Positions 9,367 through 64,000 of a stretch of 64,000 nucleotides of DNA are shown piece after piece. How positions within the stretch are numbered: position 1 is the stretch's first letter; every line of letters begins with the position of its first letter. Origin of the DNA: an uncultured bacterium. Its GTDB lineage: Bacteria; Zixibacteria; MSB-5A5; CAIYYT01. Location of the stretch: the NCBI GenBank assembly GCA_963726455.1, contig CAVSCK010000003.1, positions 512,001-576,000 on the forward strand. Direction: 5' to 3'. The position numbers were made by a program, and so were the translations under genes. The notes under the pieces were generated by a model. The model ran no database searches and was not told the origin of the DNA. It saw only the letters and a list, made by a program, of their open reading frames with translations.

Positions 9367-9443
<77 letters not shown>

Positions 9444-56100: not shown

Positions 56101-56623
56101 TGTCCTTGCCGAAGATATCAGCAAGTTCAAAGGCGCACCGTTTCGCTTCGGCATCGTTGCCGCGTCGCAAGTACATTGCCACTTCCCCGTGCAAACATGC
56201 CGTGGAACAAATCAACCCCTCGGCGTGCTGGCGCAGCAATTCCTTGTCGATTCGCGGCCGGTGATAGAAACCTTCCAGGAATCCCGCGCTCGAAAGCTGG
56301 ATCAGATTCTGGTAACCTTCAGCGTTCTTGACCAGCAGGACCAGATGGTTTCCACCGTCGGGATATCCCGCCACCGGTTCTTTGAGCATCCGCGACTTGG
56401 GAGCTACATAAACTTCTGAACCGATGATCGGCTTGACACCGGCATCACGCGCCTTCTTGTAGAATTCCACCGCTCCGAACATGTTGCCATGATCGGTGAT
56501 GGCGATTGCCGGAAAATGCAGCTCCACTGCGAGCTTGACAAAATCCTCGATCCGGCAGGCGCCGTCGAGCAGCGAATACTGGGTATGATTGTGCAAGTGA
56601 ACGAAATCGGCCGTCTGCCTCAT
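53183..56623 (-). CDS. dnaE: DNA polymerase III alpha subunit
   Basis: HLHNH.YSLLDG, GRGSAAGS, PDIDID and GFNKSH motifs; start MRQTADF by ATGA overlap; normal length. Confidence 0.97.
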   Translation of the reverse strand: MRQTADFVHLHNHTQYSLLDGACRIEDFVKLAVELHFPAIAITDHGNMFGAVEFYKKARDAGVKPIIGSEVYVAPKSRMLKEPVAGYPDGGNHLVLLVKNAEGYQNLIQLSSAGFLEGFYHRPRIDKELLRQHAEGLICSTACLHGEVAMYLRRGNDAEAKRCAFELADIFGKDNFYLEIQNHAIADEDKVRPMIVKLAEENGFHLLASNDCHYLRREHAEAHDALLCIQTGKQIGDVDRMRYSTDQLYVKTAAEMKEQFAATPTAIENTLRIAEQCNLEIQLGKNHLPAFPLKPGYETLDDYLTYLAEKGLAQRYPKVTAGVKERLDYELKVIKQMGYAGYFLIVADFTGEARKQGVSVGPGRGSAAGSIVAYALGITNIDPIKYDLLFERFLNPERISMPDIDIDFSDRGRDKIIQYVIQKYGQENVGQIITFGTMAARAVVRDVGRVMGVPYSEVDRIAKLIPFAVDMTIEKALKLEPQLTQLIESDARIAKLLEISRVLEGLTRHASTHAAGVVIAPAKLTNFVPLYVGTKGEVTTQYDMKVVEGIGLLKMDFLGLRTLTVIDDAIAMIAVRHKFHLEIDKIPLDDPKVYELFCDGATIGIFQFESTGMRDYLRKLRPENLNDLAAMNALYRPGPLKGGVVDLYINRKHGLEKVSYEHPLLESVLKDTYGVIVFQEQAIKISAEMAGYSLGKGDILRKAMGKKDADLMRAQKEEFVKGCQKNKIEKKTAEQVFDLIEKFAGYGFNKSHSVGYALLAYQTAYLKTHYPQEFMAASMTSEMGSTDRIIILMEECRRMGIEVLPPDVNESELAFSVVGDKIRFGLAAVKNVGHGAVEAILEARNEGGRFESIFDFCARADLGAVNRRTIESLVMSGAFDSVRGNRSQLFGAVEVALNFGQSIQRKEGIAQSDLFGSGGADDTVQEPLLPNVDEWNAATILQNEREALGFYVSGHPMERFRLELSAYATTNSEEISDRPDGTDVSLGGIVQALKVSYDKQGRQMAFITLEDFFGVVEVVVFADLFERSRQMIHTDAVLLARGRVSTRENEKSKLVASEICRLEGLFDQRPALMEIFINGGASANLLQDIESLLRRYPGPVGVQLAVVSGSQLFYLRSKNLKVRPEGKLFEQLTLLVGKENINFKPV

Positions 56624-57312
56624 CGGGAATCCCACCATTCACCTTTCTTGCCGGTCAACTTGAAGTAGAGATAACCAAACGCAAATCCGCCGACATGGGC
56701 AAACCACGCCACACCACCTCCCTGCCCACCCGCGAGCAAACTCGGCAATCCGTACAGCAATTGCAGTACGAACCAGAATCCCAGCAGTATTGCCGCAGGT
56801 AGACGAACCGTCTGTATGAAAAATCCGAGGAACAGCAGGGTCAAAACGCGCGCCTTCGGATAGAGTGCCACGTACGCACCCAGGATTCCGGCAATCGCCC
56901 CCGATGCTCCAACCAGAGGAACTTGCGATGACGGTGAAGTTGCCATGAACAACAACAAAGCAGCAACGCCTGAAACCAGGTAGAAGACAACGAATTTGAA
57001 TTTGCCCAGGTAATCCTCGACATTGTTTCCGAAGATCCAGAGGTACAACATGTTACCGGCGAGATGCATGAATCCGCCATGTACAAACATGCTCGTTATT
57101 ACGGTAACTCCGTACGGCATAGCAAGTTGTGGATATAGCGTGCCGGCCCCTGTGTATTGCGCCGGCACAAATCCCATTCTGAACATCATGGCGTTGTATT
57201 GAAAATCAGTCAACGTGAATTGGTAAATGTATACAGCCACGTTGGCCGCAATAAGCACAACGGTTACGATAGGAAATCGCCTGGTGGGTACATCGTCCTT
57301 GAGTGGCAACAT
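56620..57312 (-). CDS. Rhomboid intramembrane serine protease
   Basis: MFVHGG..HL.GNM, GASG and AHVGG motifs; start MLPLKD. Confidence 0.93.
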   Translation of the reverse strand: MLPLKDDVPTRRFPIVTVVLIAANVAVYIYQFTLTDFQYNAMMFRMGFVPAQYTGAGTLYPQLAMPYGVTVITSMFVHGGFMHLAGNMLYLWIFGNNVEDYLGKFKFVVFYLVSGVAALLLFMATSPSSQVPLVGASGAIAGILGAYVALYPKARVLTLLFLGFFIQTVRLPAAILLGFWFVLQLLYGLPSLLAGGQGGGVAWFAHVGGFAFGYLYFKLTGKKGEWWDSR

Positions 57313-57378
57313 ATTTGACCAATATACGCCATTCGATAGATGACACAAGCAGCCAGTTAGATGGATGTAAGGTTACGA

Positions 57379-57434
57379 ATACGTACTTCTGTACGCACTA
57401 AGTTATTGACAGATAGAGCATCGGTGTCTATATT
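57379..57434 (+). promoter_or_regulatory. Candidate operator plus sigma70 promoter of the PAS-LuxR gene
   Basis: ATACGTAC-ttct-GTACGCACT followed by TTGACA-17 bp-TATATT. Confidence 0.6.
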
Positions 57435-57519
57435 GGAACTACTTAGGTGGACTAAAACCAGTTTCCGCTCGTCCTCTCCAGCGAGGGGCCTGCTTCACCT
57501 GTATTTTGGGGGTGATGAA

Positions 57520-60500
57520 GTGCACGAACCTGACGGCAGCACTGACAGCAATCAAGATCAATCGAGCTCTCCCAATACTGGCCATGTAATCGCGGGATAT
57601 ATTGTTTGGGTCAACCGCGAAGGCACAATCGAATATGTCGCGCAATGGGAAGGTGGAATCAGCTACGAAGGGCTGCTGGGAAATAGTGTGTTCGACAGGG
57701 TACCGCCCGATGCCCGGGAGATTCTGATTGCCCGATTGCAGGATGTATTCTCGACCCACGTAAATGAAACGATCATCATGCCTGCTCCTGCGGACTGCGA
57801 CAAGGGCGGCATGGTTGAGATCAAGCTGATTCCTCTGAAATATCCCGGGAAACCGATTGACAAGGTTGCCGTAGCGTTCCGTCGGACAGCCGGAGAAATT
57901 AAGTTACCGTCTCCCGAAAGAACATCGCGCCTGCAGCAAAAGGGGACGCGATTCCCCTCCCGCATGACATTCGATGAGTTGCCTTGCGAAACAAGTCTCA
58001 AGAAACAGAAACACATCGAGGCGCTGCTCAAGGAAGCCGAGGAGAATTTCCGCCGACTGGCTGATACTTCGCTGCAGGGCATCATCATCATACAGGATGA
58101 TACCATTGTATTCACCAATCAGCGCGCCGCAGACGTTATCGGAATCACGGTCGCGGAATTGACCGGCCTGACCATGGTAACTATCTCCGAGAGGTTCATC
58201 GAACCGGAATCTCGGGCCCTGCTTGATCAGAAGCGCCGTGATCTATTTGACGGCGTTGTCTACGGATCGTCGTACGAATTAAGAATCCGCACGATGTCCG
58301 GCGACGCCCGGTGGCTGGATGTCACCACGATGCCCGTTACTTATCGTGGACATGATGCAATTCAGGCGTCACTGATCGACGTCACCGACCGCAAGAAGAC
58401 CGAAGATGACTTACGTGATAGTGAGGAACGCTACCGGACTCTCGTCGAGAATGCACAAAACGCGATCTTTTCAATGGAATATGACGGAACGCTGGCCTTC
58501 TTGAATTCGGTGGCAGCCCGCATGCTCGGTGGCGAGCCCTCCGAGTACGTTGGCAAGAACGTCCGTGACTTATTCCCGCCGGATAAAGCAGAACGACATC
58601 TGGCGGCGGTACAGCGTGTAATCGATAATGGCAAGGGCGAGACGATCGAGAATCTCACGGAACTGCGGGGACAACCGCGTTGGCATATCACCAGTATCCA
58701 CCCGCTCAACGGACGAAATGGCAAACGGCATTGCGCCTTTTTGATTTCTACGGATATTACCGACTCGAAATTGGCTAGCCAGAAGCTCGCGCGGGAACGC
58801 GATTTCACGCGCTCTATTCTGCAAACGGCGAACAGTCTGATCATCTGCCTCGACGAGCGCGCCGAAATCTTGATCTTTAACGAGGAATGCGAACGCGTCA
58901 CGGGATATTCGGGCGATGAGGTCAGGGGTAAACGCTGGTCAGATATTTTCGTCCCACCTGAATATCGTCATGAAGGGCTAAAGGATTTCGGCACCTGGGT
59001 GAGAGAGCATCCCCACGACCGCAAGGAAGAGCCGATTATTACGAAATCCGGCGAGCGGCGCTGTATTCTCTGGTCCAACTCGTCGTTCATTTCACCAGAC
59101 ACCGGTGAGTTGGCCGCAATTGCAATCGGCTATGACATTACCGAAGTGAAGCGGGCCAATCAGCAACTGAAGGAAGCGGAAGCACGATATCGTAACCTGG
59201 TGGAACTGCTTCCGCAAATTGCCTATACCGCCGCACTCAACGGCAACAGTACGACGACTTATATCAGTCCACAAGTGGAGAAGATACTTGGTTTTTCTCC
59301 GGCAGAATATCTTACCAATCCCGACCTTTGGTACCAGCAGCTATATCCTGACGATCGCGAGCGGGTCCTGGCCGAACTTCGTCGCACCCACGAAACTGGA
59401 CGCCCTCTGAATATCGAGTATCGGATGTACAGCCGCGACCGACGGGTGATTTGGTTTCGTGATCATGCAGTGATAATTCGAGACAGCGACGGCACACCGC
59501 TTTTTCTTCAGGGCGTTCAATACGATATCACCGAGAACAAGGTGGCAGAAGACGCGTTGCGAGAGAGCGAAAAGCGCTTCAAAGATCTTGCCGACATGCT
59601 GCCGTCGACCGTCTTTGAGTTAAGTCTCAAGGGCAAGTTTACTTTCGTCAACAGCCACGGGTTGGACCTTTTCGGTTACACACTGGAAGAATTAAGCCAT
59701 GATGCGGCCGTATTCGACGTGCTGTCCCCGGCGGATCGCGACCGCGTGAAGAAAAGTTTGCTGGAGATTCTGGGAGGCCGCACTCTGCAGGGGGCCGAAT
59801 ATACGGCGGTGCGCAAGGACGGCAGCGCGTTCCCAGCTCTGATTCATGTCAATCGTATCTCGCACAATGGCAAGATCAGCGGCTTTCGCGGCATCCTGGT
59901 TGATATAACGCAGCGCAAGAAAGTCGAGGAATTGCTGCGGCAGTCCCAGGAGGCCTATCGCGATCTGGTGGAGAATGTTGATGACGTCCTGTATATCCTC
60001 GATCAAGATCTCGTGATCACCTATGTGAGTCCGATTGTGAAAAGCGTTTTGGGTTATGAACCGGCGGAGCTGCTGGGACAGACAGCGTTGTCACTGGTTC
60101 ATCCTGATGATTTGCCCGGACTATTGGTCAGTGTGAACGACGTCCTGAATAACCGGCTCTATCCCAGCGATTACCGGATGCTGACGAAGACCGGCGACAT
60201 TCGCTGGGTGCAAACGTCCAGCCGCCCGATTTTTGAAAAAGACAAGCTCATTGGAGTACGAGGCATCCTGACTGACATCACCGAGCGAAAACGTTCCGAA
60301 CGGGCACTGCGAGAAAGCCAGGAACGATTCGAAAGAGTTGCTCAGCAAAGTCGTGAGATGGTCTGGGAAGTTGATGCCGACGGACTGTACACTTACGTAA
60401 GTCAGGCGTGTGATGAAATTCTTGGTTATCGGCCGGACGAACTCACCGGCAAGATGCATTTCTACGATCTTCAGCCCGAGTCGGAACGCGAGGACTTCAG

Positions 60501-62253
60501 AAAGAATGCCTTTGCAAACCAGATAGTCCCGCGCGCGCCCTTTCATAATCAGGTCAACAAAGTAGTCTCCAAGACTGGCCGGGTGTTGTGGTTCCTCACC
60601 AGCGGTTCGCCGGTCCTGGATGCCGACGGAAATCTGAAAGGTTTCGTAGGCGCCGATCTTGATATCACTGAGCGAATCGAGATGGAGCAGGACCTTCATA
60701 TTAAGGAGCGGGCCCTAGCTTCGTCCATTAATGGCCTCGGCCTTGCCGATCTGCAAGGACGAATCTCGTATGTGAACGACGCCTTTGTGAAAATGTGGGG
60801 GTATACTCGCGAAGAGATTTATGCCACGCCGATGAGCAATTTGGCGTTCGATCCGCAAGACGTTGTTCGTGTAATGGACGCCATCAGATCCAAAGGGCAG
60901 TTCTTTGGTGAGTCCGTGTCGAAACGAAAAGACGGCACCCCCTTTGATGTTCAAATCTCCGCCAGTATGGTGACCAATGCATCCAATCAACCGATTGCCA
61001 TGCTGGCCACATTTATTGACATCACCGAACGCAAGCGGAGCGAACGAGCCTTACAAATGAGCGAGGAACGTTTCCGTCTTCTCTACAAAGGGAATCCGCT
61101 GCCGACCTATACATGGCAGCGAAGAAACGGTGACTTCTTTCTGGTTGAGTGTAACAGCGCCGCCGTGACAATGACGAACGGCAAGATCGCTTCATACATC
61201 GGCGTCAACGCGAAAGAGCTCTTCGTGAAGCGGCCGGACGTGTTTGATGACCTGAATCTCTGCCTCGACGAACGATCCAACTTCAACCGTGAAATGGAAT
61301 ATCAGCTTGGTTCTCCCGGGCGGACCGTGCTGTTCTCAGTCAGGTACAACTTCGTGCCCCCCGACTTGGTATTGGTACAGACAGAGGACATCACTCAACG
61401 GAAACATGCTGAAAGCGCTTTGAAAATGAGCGAGGAAAGATTCCGAGCGCTCTTCAAGGGCAGCCCGTTACCGATGGTGCTGTTTCAATGGAGGATGGGA
61501 GATCTCGTCCTGATAGACACCAATGACGCGACGAATTCCGTGACCGAGGGGAAACTCGCCCAACTAACCGGTGAAACGGCCAAACACATATTTCAGACAG
61601 ATCAGGAGTTTCTGAACGAACTGTATGAATGCTTCAGCCACCAGTCAACTATCAGTCGGGAAGTCCGTCATCAATTTTGGGGCACAGACCATGAGCTGCG
61701 GCTATCTGTCTTTTGTTCTTTTGTCCCCCCTGATTTGATGCTCATACAAGCTGAAGACATCACCGAGAGAAAACGAATGGAAGAGCGCCTCCTAAGCGCA
61801 AAGCTGCAATTGGAGCGCGACAGTCAGGCACTGAAAGAAAAGAATATCACGCTCAAAGAAGTCCTGACTCAGATTCAGGACGAAGTTGATCAAGTAAAGC
61901 AGAACATCCAGTCCAATATCAGTAAGCTTGTCATACCAGTCTTGTTAAGACTCAGGGAGAAAGCAAGGGAGAGCGACCGAATCGAACTGGAGCATCTGGA
62001 ATCAGTGCTGAGTAACGCAGCCTCTCCGTTTATCCGTGACATAGAATCACGATTTGTTCAATTGACGCCGCGCGAGACGGAAATCTGCAACATGATTTGT
62101 AACGGGCTGCAATCCAAGGAGATCGGTCAGGCGCTGGGTATCTCCCATCGAACTGTAGAGAAGTTTCGCCAGAAAATCAGAGCAAAACTGGGAGTAAAAG
62201 ACCGCGACACCAATCTTACGTCCTTTATTCGATCGCTATCCCAAAAGCCGTGA
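57520..62253 (+). CDS. Multi-PAS (~11) LuxR-type one-component transcriptional regulator
   Basis: Ten D[IV]T PAC ends plus a degenerate N-terminal PAS; C-terminal LTPRE.EI...G..SKEIG..L.IS.RTV HTH; start GTG 57520 with GGGGGTGA RBS. Confidence 0.9.
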   Translation: MHEPDGSTDSNQDQSSSPNTGHVIAGYIVWVNREGTIEYVAQWEGGISYEGLLGNSVFDRVPPDAREILIARLQDVFSTHVNETIIMPAPADCDKGGMVEIKLIPLKYPGKPIDKVAVAFRRTAGEIKLPSPERTSRLQQKGTRFPSRMTFDELPCETSLKKQKHIEALLKEAEENFRRLADTSLQGIIIIQDDTIVFTNQRAADVIGITVAELTGLTMVTISERFIEPESRALLDQKRRDLFDGVVYGSSYELRIRTMSGDARWLDVTTMPVTYRGHDAIQASLIDVTDRKKTEDDLRDSEERYRTLVENAQNAIFSMEYDGTLAFLNSVAARMLGGEPSEYVGKNVRDLFPPDKAERHLAAVQRVIDNGKGETIENLTELRGQPRWHITSIHPLNGRNGKRHCAFLISTDITDSKLASQKLARERDFTRSILQTANSLIICLDERAEILIFNEECERVTGYSGDEVRGKRWSDIFVPPEYRHEGLKDFGTWVREHPHDRKEEPIITKSGERRCILWSNSSFISPDTGELAAIAIGYDITEVKRANQQLKEAEARYRNLVELLPQIAYTAALNGNSTTTYISPQVEKILGFSPAEYLTNPDLWYQQLYPDDRERVLAELRRTHETGRPLNIEYRMYSRDRRVIWFRDHAVIIRDSDGTPLFLQGVQYDITENKVAEDALRESEKRFKDLADMLPSTVFELSLKGKFTFVNSHGLDLFGYTLEELSHDAAVFDVLSPADRDRVKKSLLEILGGRTLQGAEYTAVRKDGSAFPALIHVNRISHNGKISGFRGILVDITQRKKVEELLRQSQEAYRDLVENVDDVLYILDQDLVITYVSPIVKSVLGYEPAELLGQTALSLVHPDDLPGLLVSVNDVLNNRLYPSDYRMLTKTGDIRWVQTSSRPIFEKDKLIGVRGILTDITERKRSERALRESQERFERVAQQSREMVWEVDADGLYTYVSQACDEILGYRPDELTGKMHFYDLQPESEREDFRKNAFANQIVPRAPFHNQVNKVVSKTGRVLWFLTSGSPVLDADGNLKGFVGADLDITERIEMEQDLHIKERALASSINGLGLADLQGRISYVNDAFVKMWGYTREEIYATPMSNLAFDPQDVVRVMDAIRSKGQFFGESVSKRKDGTPFDVQISASMVTNASNQPIAMLATFIDITERKRSERALQMSEERFRLLYKGNPLPTYTWQRRNGDFFLVECNSAAVTMTNGKIASYIGVNAKELFVKRPDVFDDLNLCLDERSNFNREMEYQLGSPGRTVLFSVRYNFVPPDLVLVQTEDITQRKHAESALKMSEERFRALFKGSPLPMVLFQWRMGDLVLIDTNDATNSVTEGKLAQLTGETAKHIFQTDQEFLNELYECFSHQSTISREVRHQFWGTDHELRLSVFCSFVPPDLMLIQAEDITERKRMEERLLSAKLQLERDSQALKEKNITLKEVLTQIQDEVDQVKQNIQSNISKLVIPVLLRLREKARESDRIELEHLESVLSNAASPFIRDIESRFVQLTPRETEICNMICNGLQSKEIGQALGISHRTVEKFRQKIRAKLGVKDRDTNLTSFIRSLSQKP

Positions 62254-62332
62254 TACGTACATTGCGTACGCACTGCGTACGCGGTCGTGGCGTATTGATC
62301 TGGCTTGACATTTTCCCACATTTTGCCATCTT
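62254..62332 (+). promoter_or_regulatory. Second copy of the operator motif plus promoter
   Basis: ATACGTAC-attgc-GTACGCACT-GCGTACGC; TTGACA at 62305-62310; TGcCATCTT weak extended -10. Confidence 0.5.
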
Positions 62333-62339
62333 TTACGTA

Positions 62340-62746
62340 GCGATGCACAAGGGGCTAATCGGGTGGAATCTTCTATAGGCGGCGAAGGTTCGAAGAGGAA
62401 GCCAGGCAATTAGGCAAGGTTTCTCGAACCTCAGATAGTTAGGTGAGCCGGAGGATTTCCCAGATCAGAATGAACTGATTTCGTAATCGATCACAGGATG
62501 TGATCGAAACTGCGCGACCCGGAAACTGTGTACGCGAGTGGTTAACTCTGACGACTCCCTTTGGGAGGGTTGGCAGGACGAATCAGGGAGGCAGGACAAC
62601 GGGGGAAACTGGCGGCTGGCTGTGAAGCGGAGGTGAATCGCAGAACACTCTGCGCTGGTTTTGTGATTCGAGAGACTTCGTGAACGGTTAGTTACCAGAC
62701 CTTGGTAAGACCCGGTGGTGACCAAGCTGCCACCGGGTTTAATTTT
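62340..62746 (+). ncRNA. Candidate ~400-nt structured non-coding RNA
   Basis: Lies between a promoter and a terminator, has no plus-strand ORF, at least 7 hairpins and 12 GGA motifs. Confidence 0.45.
62710..62746 (+). terminator. Rho-independent terminator
   Basis: ACCCGGTGG...CCACCGGGT-TTAATTTT. Confidence 0.75.
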
Positions 62747-62835
62747 GCTCAGTCTTGACTCCTACCTTCATATATATCCTCCCACATTTCATCACTCGAT
62801 ATCTATTAAGCCGAGAATCGGCCTCGCACGCAAAT

Positions 62836-62871
62836 AAAAGACCGGGAATCTCTTAGTGAGATTCCCGGTCT
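62836..62871 (-). terminator. Terminator of the dockerin-domain gene
   Basis: AGACCGGGAATCTC...GAGATTCCCGGTCT-TTT on the minus strand. Confidence 0.8.
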
Positions 62872-62899
62872 GATTATCGATCGGAATTAGATCTGATCG

Positions 62900-64000
62900 T
62901 TATTTAGTGCAAGGAGCCGGACCGCCTGAGAAAATGTAAGCGATCAAGAAAACGGCATCCGAGATGTCAACAGCTGTGTCGCAGTTGGCATCACCCAGCT
63001 CAAGTGGATTCGGAGCCGCTCCGCCACTAAAGATGTAGCCGATGATAAATACGACGTCAGAGATATCGATCGAACCGCTGCCGTCAGCATCGCCCGACAT
63101 CACTTGAGTTCCACCGACATTCATCGTAACCGGTATGTTGTGAACCGGGTTTGTAGGTGCGTTCGAGCCGATTGTCAACGAACCCGTGTAGGTTGAGTCG
63201 ATACACTCGGCGGCGTTGAACCCGATGGTCAGGGTGTCGCTGCCGTGCGGATCGATGCTGCCACCACTCGGATCGGAAGAGAGCCACGTGTTAAGCGGGC
63301 TCTTGAAGAGAATTGCTAAGTTGCCGTGCAAGTAGGCGGCATTGAATACGATCTGTGAACCGTCCAGACCGGTGCGATTCTCAATACCAACGCTGCTGCC
63401 CAGAATATCGAATCCCGCGGCTATGGTCTGATATTGAATTCTGATCTTGCCATTGGGCGACAGGATAACTTCCGCCGTGATGACATCACCAGGATTGGTC
63501 GTGGCATCGTACTCCGGATAGTTCTTGTACTCGATCACCAGGTCACCATTGACCACTTGATAGAGCACCTTGCCTCCGGGGCTGTCCGGATCAAGGATAT
63601 TGAGGTCGTCCCAACACCAGGCAATCATATTGTTCGGAGTGCCGGATGTCGGAATAGCGACGTTGCCCAAAGAGCTGAGATCGGTAGTCGGGCCAAATCC
63701 GATCAGGCCGTTGGCGCCAATATAGAACTCGGTGTAAACCGAATCATAGTACTGGAAGCTGAATCCGATCGGGAACGGACCGATGAAGTTGTCATCGGCC
63801 AGACCAGCCGTAACGTTGGTGCCTGTGGCTTCAATGTCAACCCAAGCGAAGGTCGGTCCACCCGGTTCATCCGAATCTCTCCAGGTGTATCCAAAGGCAT
63901 CCGGACCGCCTGAACCCTTCGTCATCTCGGCGAAATACGGCTCGGTATAACCGGTCTTATCCGGATCGGCTACGCGGGTACCCAACGGCACCTGCGGAGT
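62900..64000 (-). CDS. C-terminal part of a large extracellular protein with a dockerin-like (paired EF-hand) end
   Basis: GGPDAFGY.W.DSD repeat-domain motif; GDADGSGSIDISD and GDANCDTAVDISD; starts outside the window. Confidence 0.85.
   Translation of the reverse strand, partial: TPQVPLGTRVADPDKTGYTEPYFAEMTKGSGGPDAFGYTWRDSDEPGGPTFAWVDIEATGTNVTAGLADDNFIGPFPIGFSFQYYDSVYTEFYIGANGLIGFGPTTDLSSLGNVAIPTSGTPNNMIAWCWDDLNILDPDSPGGKVLYQVVNGDLVIEYKNYPEYDATTNPGDVITAEVILSPNGKIRIQYQTIAAGFDILGSSVGIENRTGLDGSQIVFNAAYLHGNLAILFKSPLNTWLSSDPSGGSIDPHGSDTLTIGFNAAECIDSTYTGSLTIGSNAPTNPVHNIPVTMNVGGTQVMSGDADGSGSIDISDVVFIIGYIFSGGAAPNPLELGDANCDTAVDISDAVFLIAYIFSGGPAPCTK

Follow-up and report, generated by a model that had tools for sequence, protein, structure and literature searches.

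Within a 64,000-nt stretch of DNA from a member of the Zixibacteria (assembly GCA_963726455.1, contig CAVSCK010000003.1, positions 512,001 to 576,000 of the forward strand; hereafter the window, whose coordinates are used unless another locus is named), we have found an element of about 407 nt, at 62340..62746 on the + strand, that is non-coding, structured and conserved, keeps its place between the same two kinds of genes in related genomes, ends in a terminator of its own and is preceded by a conserved arrangement of palindromic boxes and a promoter. It lies in the 646 nt that separate the stop codon (62251-62253) of a gene for a multi-PAS regulator of the LuxR/GerE type from the end, at 62900 (-), of a convergent gene for a dockerin-bearing peptidase. 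The host is an uncultivated bacterium of soil or sediment. With moderate confidence, we favor the reading that the element is a genuine, independently promoted structured RNA gene of about 400 nt and the trans-acting, post-transcriptional output arm of the regulator. A preliminary description, made from the letters of the window, had proposed a structured non-coding RNA of about 400 nt downstream of the PAS-LuxR gene, and this proposal is borne out by the conservation in seven sequences and by the fold explained below.

Fold and terminator of the RNA

For the + strand of 62340-62746, the folding energy is -157.9 kcal/mol, whereas dinucleotide shuffles have -131.7 +/- 6.0 kcal/mol (z -4.35; none of 100 shuffles equaled it); the fold z of the - strand is -1.89. 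Most of the helices listed in the preliminary description are present in the minimum-free-energy fold. The consensus structure obtained with RNAalifold from six sequences has 126 pairs, and 93.6% of the alignment cells can pair in it. Changes on both sides are found in 15 of the 126 pairs, compared with 4.0 +/- 1.7 in 500 shuffles, none of which reached 15, and with 2-7 in controls with slid partners. The commonest pair type is G-U or U-G (23 of the 126 pairs), a composition that fits the + strand only.

In the model of this fold, the 5' domain is closed by long-range helices (62344-62348/62528-62532 and 62359-62364/62517-62522) and encloses three hairpins. The second part is a long hairpin holding most of the conserved GGCAGGAYGAATCAGGG, the third is a G-rich linker, (A)AGGACAAYGGGGGAA, and the fourth comprises the third long hairpin together with the terminal one. 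The conserved 5' motif GGGGCTAATCGGGTG (62351..62365, +), which was delimited with alignments A2 and A3, the consensus fold and the unpaired probability, contributes to one of the closing helices: UCGGGU (62359-62364) pairs with ACCCGG (62517-62522), and GGCUAA is predicted to be unpaired. Among the conserved letters, the unpaired probability is highest in this GGCUAA (62353-62358), in part of the linker and in the CCAAGC loop of the terminal hairpin. The hairpin TCGATCACA-GGA-TGTGATCGA (62487..62507, +), designated helix 6, has kept its stem by compensatory changes, with four pairs changed on both sides, and its GGA loop is not conserved.

The terminal hairpin, with its CCAAGC loop, has the form of an intrinsic terminator (62708..62740, +; 13 pairs, followed by TTTAATTTT). 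A terminator scan assigned five terminator-like sites against 1.1 +/- 1.0 expected, and about 100 nt past the + strand terminator lies a separate one on the - strand (62871-62839), which belongs to the convergent gene; the early claim of a terminator apart from that of the convergent gene is thus upheld. The pattern GGTGG..CCAAGC..CCACC occurs only once in the genome (3.64 Mb, with a completeness rating of 100%), and the whole RNA stretch is likewise single-copy in it. Taken as a candidate gene, the element has the marks of an independently terminated small RNA (sRNA) gene, i.e., its own promoter, its own terminator, no conserved open reading frame (ORF) and a conserved structure, and its transcript is predicted from them.

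Relation to known RNA classes

The comparison with Rfam that the preliminary description had advised found no known family. In Rfam 15, cmscan of 58000-64000 at E <= 10 gave only the chance-level matches SMAD5-AS1_3 (E 0.44) and sR10 (E 7.1), which are unrelated eukaryotic and archaeal families. We have also considered individual candidates among the known RNAs and rejected them. The gene for RNase P RNA is located on another contig (G000:C4:1146685-1147049), as is that for tmRNA (G000:C4:1264149-1264514), and ARAGORN found no tmRNA in the window. The housekeeping and large RNAs of Rfam (6S, OLE, GOLLD, HEARO, ROOL, and raiA) have no covariance-model match in the region. The 6S model RF00013 finds no match anywhere in the genome, but the size of about 400 nt and the branched fold do not suit the 6S rod. 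The full tmRNA gene (195.6 bits) is followed, 3 kb downstream, by a second tmRNA-like match (103.9 bits, G000:C4:1267337-1267681), which may be the remnant of an element integrated into ssrA.

Homologs within the genus and coding potential

BLAST against 60 related genomes matched two of the three same-genus genomes with 78-79% identity over 62510-62624 (+), and this conserved core, confirmed in the alignment, includes GGCAGGAYGAATCAGGGNGGC and (A)AGGACAAYGGGGGAA. A covariance model of the core (R1, 148 positions) finds the RNA in all four genomes of the genus and in none of the 17 other genomes of the family in the Genome Taxonomy Database (GTDB). With the filters off, R1 found in 22 regulator loci only the already known match in genome G001; the next score was 13.7 bits (E 0.23, locus L053). 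We also scanned metagenome contigs and 185,579 species genomes with a 21-nt degenerate pattern of the core. Among the metagenome contigs, 3 of the 11 pattern matches are true homologs; among the species genomes, 3 of 12 are, and these repeat the same-genus genomes.

Seven distinct homologous sequences have thus been collected, from the four genomes of the genus and three metagenome contigs, and all are syntenic between a LuxR-type gene and a convergent dockerin gene. The seven have a common layout: the 3' end of the LuxR-type gene, a ATACGTAC...ATACGCA box, TTGACT-17-TATTTT, GGGGCTAATCGGGTG, the core, the covarying terminal hairpin, a spacer and the dockerin gene; the window carries its own version of the promoter, TTGACA-16-CATCTT. 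Box-like repeats stand between the stop codon and the -35 element in the same-genus loci, and conservation ends after the terminator, the spacer sequence not being conserved in these loci. Judging from these searches, the sequence family is a genus-level one, confined to one genus of Zixibacteria. The RNA is new as a sequence family, yet small and narrow in distribution, and the expression "new large RNA class" in the preliminary description is too strong for seven sequences of one genus. In one same-genus RNA (L013, 1195-1235), an internal hairpin has undergone a tandem duplication of about 34 nt; helices can be gained while the rest is kept.

The region had been described as free of ORFs, and this holds in substance, since neither a frame nor a start is conserved among the relatives; taken mechanically, it does contain ORFs of up to 41 aa on the + strand and 86 aa on the - strand. 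The - strand ORFs of the seven sequences agree neither in frame nor in start or length. Compared with its relatives, the window has indels of 3, 1 and 1 nt inside the conserved core; because these shift the frames while the nucleotides are kept, coding is excluded.

Boxes, promoters and the start of the regulator

Elements answering to the operator and promoter announced in the preliminary description are visible upstream of the RNA. One operator-like palindromic box, ATACGTAC-ATTGC-GTACGCA (62253-62272, +), overlaps the stop codon of the regulator gene, and a second, TGCGTAC...GCGTA (62274-62294, +), follows. The candidate promoter (62305..62332, +) is composed of a -35 element TTGACA (62305-62310), a 16-nt spacer and a -10 element CATCTT (62327-62332), and the predicted start of the RNA is about 62339-62341.

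A genome-wide pattern scan has placed the same box, here ATACGTAC-TTCT-GTACGCA (57379..57397, +), before the regulator gene, where it is a candidate autoregulatory operator; a promoter-like TTGACA, 17 nt, TATATT (57406..57434, +) begins 8 nt past it. Both fall inside the mechanically longest ORF, and because a promoter-like element lies there, the true start of the regulator is probably near GTG 57520, preceded by GGGGGTGA, rather than at ATG 57361. In the same-genus genome G001, too, box and promoter stand in this arrangement before the regulator gene (L090, position 614). The RNA promoter thus carries conserved boxes with TTGACW, and the regulator promoter carries the same box, both being sites predicted from the sequence. 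Since the box recurs at the regulator's own promoter, autoregulation is implied, and the arrangement suggests an autoregulated one-component sensor with an RNA output; the boxes at both places would be bound by the neighboring regulator itself rather than by a paralog. The early idea of a one-component regulator driving an RNA fits this anatomy. The terminator scan found no terminator between the regulator stop codon and 62708; the RNA is therefore probably carried also as the 3' end of the regulator mRNA.

The scan of the own genome for paired boxes gave 30 raw matches, several of which overlap at the RNA promoter. Besides that promoter, there are two intergenic box sites with a promoter-like TTGAC hexamer downstream. 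The third box, on another contig (G000:C4:1857603 (-), equivalent to L094 2606-2588 (-)), reads ATACGTAC-ACCAT-GTACGCA and is followed by TTGACG-17-CATATT; downstream come a leader of some 420 nt and a gene whose product has a signal peptide and matches NosD/beta-helix weakly. This gene is possibly a second member of the regulon, with a long structured 5' untranslated region (UTR).

The same slot in other genera of the family

A search with the C-terminal 199 aa of the regulator gave 25 loci from 21 genomes of the family, and in three other genera (g2, g4 and g5; the genus of the window is g1) the slot past the regulator gene has a recurring anatomy: boxes of the types TGCGTAC, ATACGTA or TACGCA right after the stop codon, TTGACW, a structured stretch of 225-375 nt in which no ORF is conserved, a GC-rich hairpin and a convergent dockerin gene. 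TTGACW stands 40-57 nt past the regulator stop codon in all 14 RNA-bearing loci listed, and in one of the nine other loci listed, L054, it occurs at positions 1 and 24 in a different arrangement. In the slot loci, a 17-nt spacer and a -10 element nATCTT follow, the latter having been read in the g2 loci.

A covariance model built for g2 (R2, 189 positions) finds exactly one full-length copy in 12 of the 13 g2 genomes, with 147-187 bits. When the invariant GUUCACUUCGACAGGNAGACC is constrained to be unpaired, all 12 of these RNAs fold into one nested architecture of two helices plus a hairpin, and their helix sequences differ, e.g., GCAUCAU/AUGAUGU, GAGCACCAG/CUGGUGUUC and GAAUACC/GGUAUUC. The fold z of eight representatives ranges from -1.6 to -5.3. 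Nine slot-mate loci have no Rfam match at E <= 1, and a search for k-mers shared across the genera gave only three 6-mers. The sole match of R2 in the whole genome of the window is the terminal hairpin of the RNA (62710-62738; 23.3 bits, E 5.6e-5). In five g2 genomes, no U-run follows the CCAAGC hairpin, and the terminator that comes next also serves the convergent gene; the hairpin is therefore more than a terminator.

In a tree of the regulator C-terminus, the RNA-linked genes from g2 fall together with those from g5 (89/89), and non-linked g2 paralogs form a clade (100/99). The g1 and g4 genes are not placed by this tree, which is compatible with a single origin. In the presumed recognition helix, as read in the regulator C-termini of loci L042-L066, the RNA-linked regulators have RTVEK(F/T)RQ, the clade of non-linked g2 paralogs has QTV(E/G)KFRQ, and three other non-linked rows (L059, L095 and L096) differ from both; the contrast between the two motifs may be a specificity determinant for the box.

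Outside the family, R2 was run over 151 genomes of the phylum. Its single match (G045, E 0.007) lies in a flagellar cluster, covers only a hairpin-like stretch and was dismissed as chance. In five genomes of other families, the search with the regulator C-terminus gave two matches, neither with boxes or TTGACW past the stop codon. Because the RNA sequence diverges fast, these results should be read as "not found" rather than "absent".

Proposed role and alternative explanations

We infer transcription of the RNA, its control by the neighboring regulator and its action in trans from the arrangements described above, and the following circuit is proposed. The sensor would bind the box at its own promoter, giving positive autoregulation, and the boxes at an activator-dependent promoter of the RNA, which would then accumulate; part of the RNA would probably be supplied as the 3' end of the regulator mRNA. 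It would act in trans through those of its conserved elements that are predicted to be accessible (the internal loop with GGCUAA, the linker AGGACAAYGGGGGAA, which is rich in G, and the terminal loop with CCAAGC), and would do so either through base pairing or as the ligand of a protein that is not CsrA.

Several points weigh against this proposal. The transcript and its ends are themselves predictions; no RNA run was among the sequencing runs listed for the stretch, and one DNA run contains 0.21 of its words. The -10 element of the promoter, CATCTT, is weak beside a good -35 element, which is why a scan for consensus promoters did not call it. The covariation support is only moderate, because the structure was derived from the same alignment in which the changes were counted and because only six sequences were used; the family itself has just seven sequences, six of them mutually close. 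No Hfq was found with PF17209 in the genome in spite of its completeness. In a search for targets, whole-length RNAduplex against the 420-nt leader of the third box gene was no better than shuffles (11 of 40 equal), and blastn-short against the genome gave only matches of chance length (13-15 nt). As for the other genera, nhmmer found no similarity among the RNAs of g1, g2, g4 and g5 except in the g1-g2 terminal hairpin (E 0.02-0.9, in a tiny database), and the slot RNAs may be analogs rather than homologs. Some relatives fold weakly (z -1.67 in G002 and -1.64 in G013), and the regulator tree does not place g1 relative to the RNA-linked g2/g5 clade. The box was not found upstream of eight g2 regulator genes, though the same scan detected it in G001, the only g1 genome covered; the g2 coordinates were guessed from frame lengths, and this negative may reflect wrong positions.

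If the promoter were unused, the element would be a purely cis-acting 3' UTR, the structured end of the regulator mRNA serving for stability or feedback. Read-through is indeed expected from the lack of a terminator before 62708, and the weak -10 element points the same way. We judge this explanation unlikely, because TTGACW 40-57 nt past the stop codon and the palindromic boxes upstream of it have been kept across four genera while the RNA diverged, because the same box stands in a clear promoter context before the regulator gene, and because DNA palindromes would have no obvious role in a 3' UTR. Cis control might instead be directed at the other neighbor: conditional read-through of 62708-62740 would lead to antisense transcription of the C25 peptidase gene or to transcriptional interference with it. 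In every locus examined, the gene past the RNA is convergent and bears a dockerin, and the five g2 hairpins without a U-run, with their shared next terminator, agree with such a mechanism. In the window, however, the hairpin is a strong terminator, with its 13 pairs and U-rich tail, and between it and the gene lie about 100 nt and another terminator; moreover, the convergent products differ as far as seen, those of g1 being C25 peptidases and the partial ones of g2 showing only He_PIG plus dockerin. This control of the dockerin gene thus appears slightly less probable still. A small-protein gene or a dual-function RNA, in which the core would encode a peptide of about 26 aa (MNQGGKDNGG...), is very improbable. 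An ATG ORF of 26-32 aa (MNQGGKDNGGTLVV...) is present inside the core of the six other g1 sequences (L012, L013, L018, L019, L022 and L036), and the two variable positions of the core are synonymous in its frame. Its counterpart in the window (62576-62650), however, is destroyed by ACG in place of ATG and by a frame shift from two 1-nt deletions, the nucleotides themselves being conserved; a purine stretch abuts the ATG with zero spacing, and four g2 RNAs checked have no conserved ORF.

The preliminary description had further suggested a sponge of the Csr/Rsm type, in which the RNA would sequester CsrA by many exposed GGA motifs and would itself be controlled by the LuxR-type protein. With its upstream palindrome, a regulator of the LuxR/GerE family does resemble GacA or UvrY driving RsmY/Z or CsrB; csrA is present in the genome (81.7 bits), the RNA is rich in G (33%), and one hairpin of the window has a GGA loop. 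The 12 GGA motifs that had been counted are there, but the modest enrichment ascribed to them is not: 14.5 +/- 2.5 are found in 300 dinucleotide shuffles (z -1.0), and among the 18 RNAs tested (the window and 17 relatives or slot-mates) z ranges from -2.5 to +0.3 at 0.6-3.1 GGA per 100 nt, against roughly 6 per 100 nt in CsrB and RsmZ. Nor are the motifs conserved in position in the alignment. The hairpin loop at 62487-62507 had been thought close to the CsrA consensus, but its stem is kept while the GGA of ACAGGATGT is replaced in all five A2 relatives by TGCT, TGTT, TGCC or CTTCA. The ACAGGAUGU hairpin loop is specific to the window, the GGA of the linker is lost in two of six relatives (AAAGAC), the conserved core that bears GGA is mostly base-paired by prediction, and Rfam 15 gave no Csr/Rsm match. 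As for csrA, a check for which had been proposed, its neighbors on either side are flgK-like and flgL-like genes, and fliW is found 2.3 kb downstream. Two reports on Campylobacter describe a CsrA of such a flagellar setting that is controlled by FliW and not by sRNAs (PMC4894983, PMC7829508). Because csrA lies among flagellar genes with fliW near, this setting suggests that the CsrA of the present genome is of the flagellar, FliW-partnered, protein-antagonized type. On these grounds, we give the sponge model hardly any weight.

We therefore return to the trans-acting output RNA of the regulator. A more far-reaching form of this reading is tentative and, in our estimate, has only a limited chance of being right: the slot RNAs would form a class of large riboregulators (about 225-410 nt) that have several domains and evolve fast, and each would serve solely as the output of one autoregulated LuxR sensor with multiple PAS domains. 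All would belong to one Zixibacteria family and stand beside dockerin-bearing secreted enzymes such as the gingipain-like C25 peptidase, which they might control. Such an RNA would be an effector resembling RNAIII in a phylum that has not been cultivated, with the CCAAGC hairpin and the G-rich linker as its working parts.

Comparison with known systems and possible significance

As a kind of system, an RNA gene adjacent to its regulator has precedents. By analogy, the closest documented circuit is VqmA-VqmR of Vibrio cholerae; a report on VqmA describes PAS ligand-binding and helix-turn-helix (HTH) DNA-binding domains and activation of vqmR (10.1101/2019.12.19.881847). The likeness would consist in a one-component PAS sensor with a C-terminal four-helix HTH and an RNA as its proposed output, PAS and GerE being assigned here by Pfam and the link to the RNA being suggested by the conserved boxes. 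The two systems differ in several respects. VqmR is about 150 nt long and Hfq-dependent, whereas the RNA presented here is about 407 nt, has several domains and occurs in a genome where no Hfq was found; there is no sequence relation and no Rfam match; the regulator has 7-8 PAS stretches in place of one; and the RNA gene follows that of the regulator on the same strand, no terminator intervening, with binding and activation as predictions only.

The Gac/Rsm systems also have a DNA-binding domain of the LuxR/GerE family and a palindrome upstream, and their chief output is a structured RNA. The circuit proposed here may be compared with GacA/UvrY-RsmY/RsmZ/CsrB in its GerE-type domain, palindromic upstream site and structured RNA, and in the presence of csrA. 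It differs in that GGA is neither enriched nor conserved, Rfam gives no match, the regulator is a one-component protein and not a phosphorylated response regulator, and CsrA is linked to FliW.

RNAIII of the staphylococcal agr system is transcribed divergently from its operon, encodes delta-hemolysin and uses C-rich loops. It would resemble the present RNA as a large multi-hairpin effector RNA beside its autoregulated sensory circuit, with secreted proteases or surface proteins in the neighborhood or regulon; the analogy would be functional only, since the RNA here is G-rich and there is no relation in sequence or structure. A further comparison can be made with sRNAs of the DapZ or MicL type, which are embedded in 3' UTRs and have promoters of their own. 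These likewise share a terminator with the upstream mRNA and have a separate promoter near the end of the gene, but the promoter here lies past the stop codon and not within the coding sequence, the RNA is far larger, and the gene upstream presumably encodes the protein that regulates the RNA.

We know of almost nothing concerning RNA-based regulation in Zixibacteria, and a search of the main texts of papers on this phylum found none on the subject. The locus offers a concrete circuit in which a defined DNA box, present at two or three promoters, would connect a sensor rich in PAS domains with a structured RNA as one of its outputs. The secreted dockerin proteins nearby probably have extracellular polymers as their substrates. 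Should the RNA be the effector of the sensor, it would show how bacteria of sediment and soil couple environmental sensing to the production of secreted enzymes, and one more family would join the few large regulatory RNAs of bacteria. As a mere genus-level sRNA, it would be an ordinary entry in RNA catalogs.

Neighboring genes and other observations

The regulator gene (57361..62253, +, as the longest ORF) encodes 1630 aa, in which Pfam assigns PAS families over 7-8 stretches and GerE to residues 1567-1615 (E 1e-12). A rhomboid-family protease gene (56620-57348, -) is divergent from it. The convergent gene for a gingipain-like Peptidase_C25 protein enters the window with its 3' part (62900..64000, -), and its terminator, assigned by the terminator scan, is at 62839..62871 (-). 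The whole gene (L083:201-5096, -) encodes 1631 aa with a C-terminal dockerin; the Pfam matches are C25 (1.3e-57) and dockerin (1.3e-5). Past this gene, in a stretch for which L083 8224-9996 (-) is listed, come a second dockerin protein and a gene for AceK, the isocitrate dehydrogenase kinase/phosphatase.

Outside the window, at G000:C3:62800-63200 and elsewhere, there is a family of REP-like repeats with tandem units of about 100 nt and the palindrome CCCTCTCCCAAAGGGAGAGGG; the CTCCC-N3-5-GGGAG pattern of this repeat has 45 occurrences in the genome. Within the window, ARAGORN assigned a tRNA-Met at 9367-9443.

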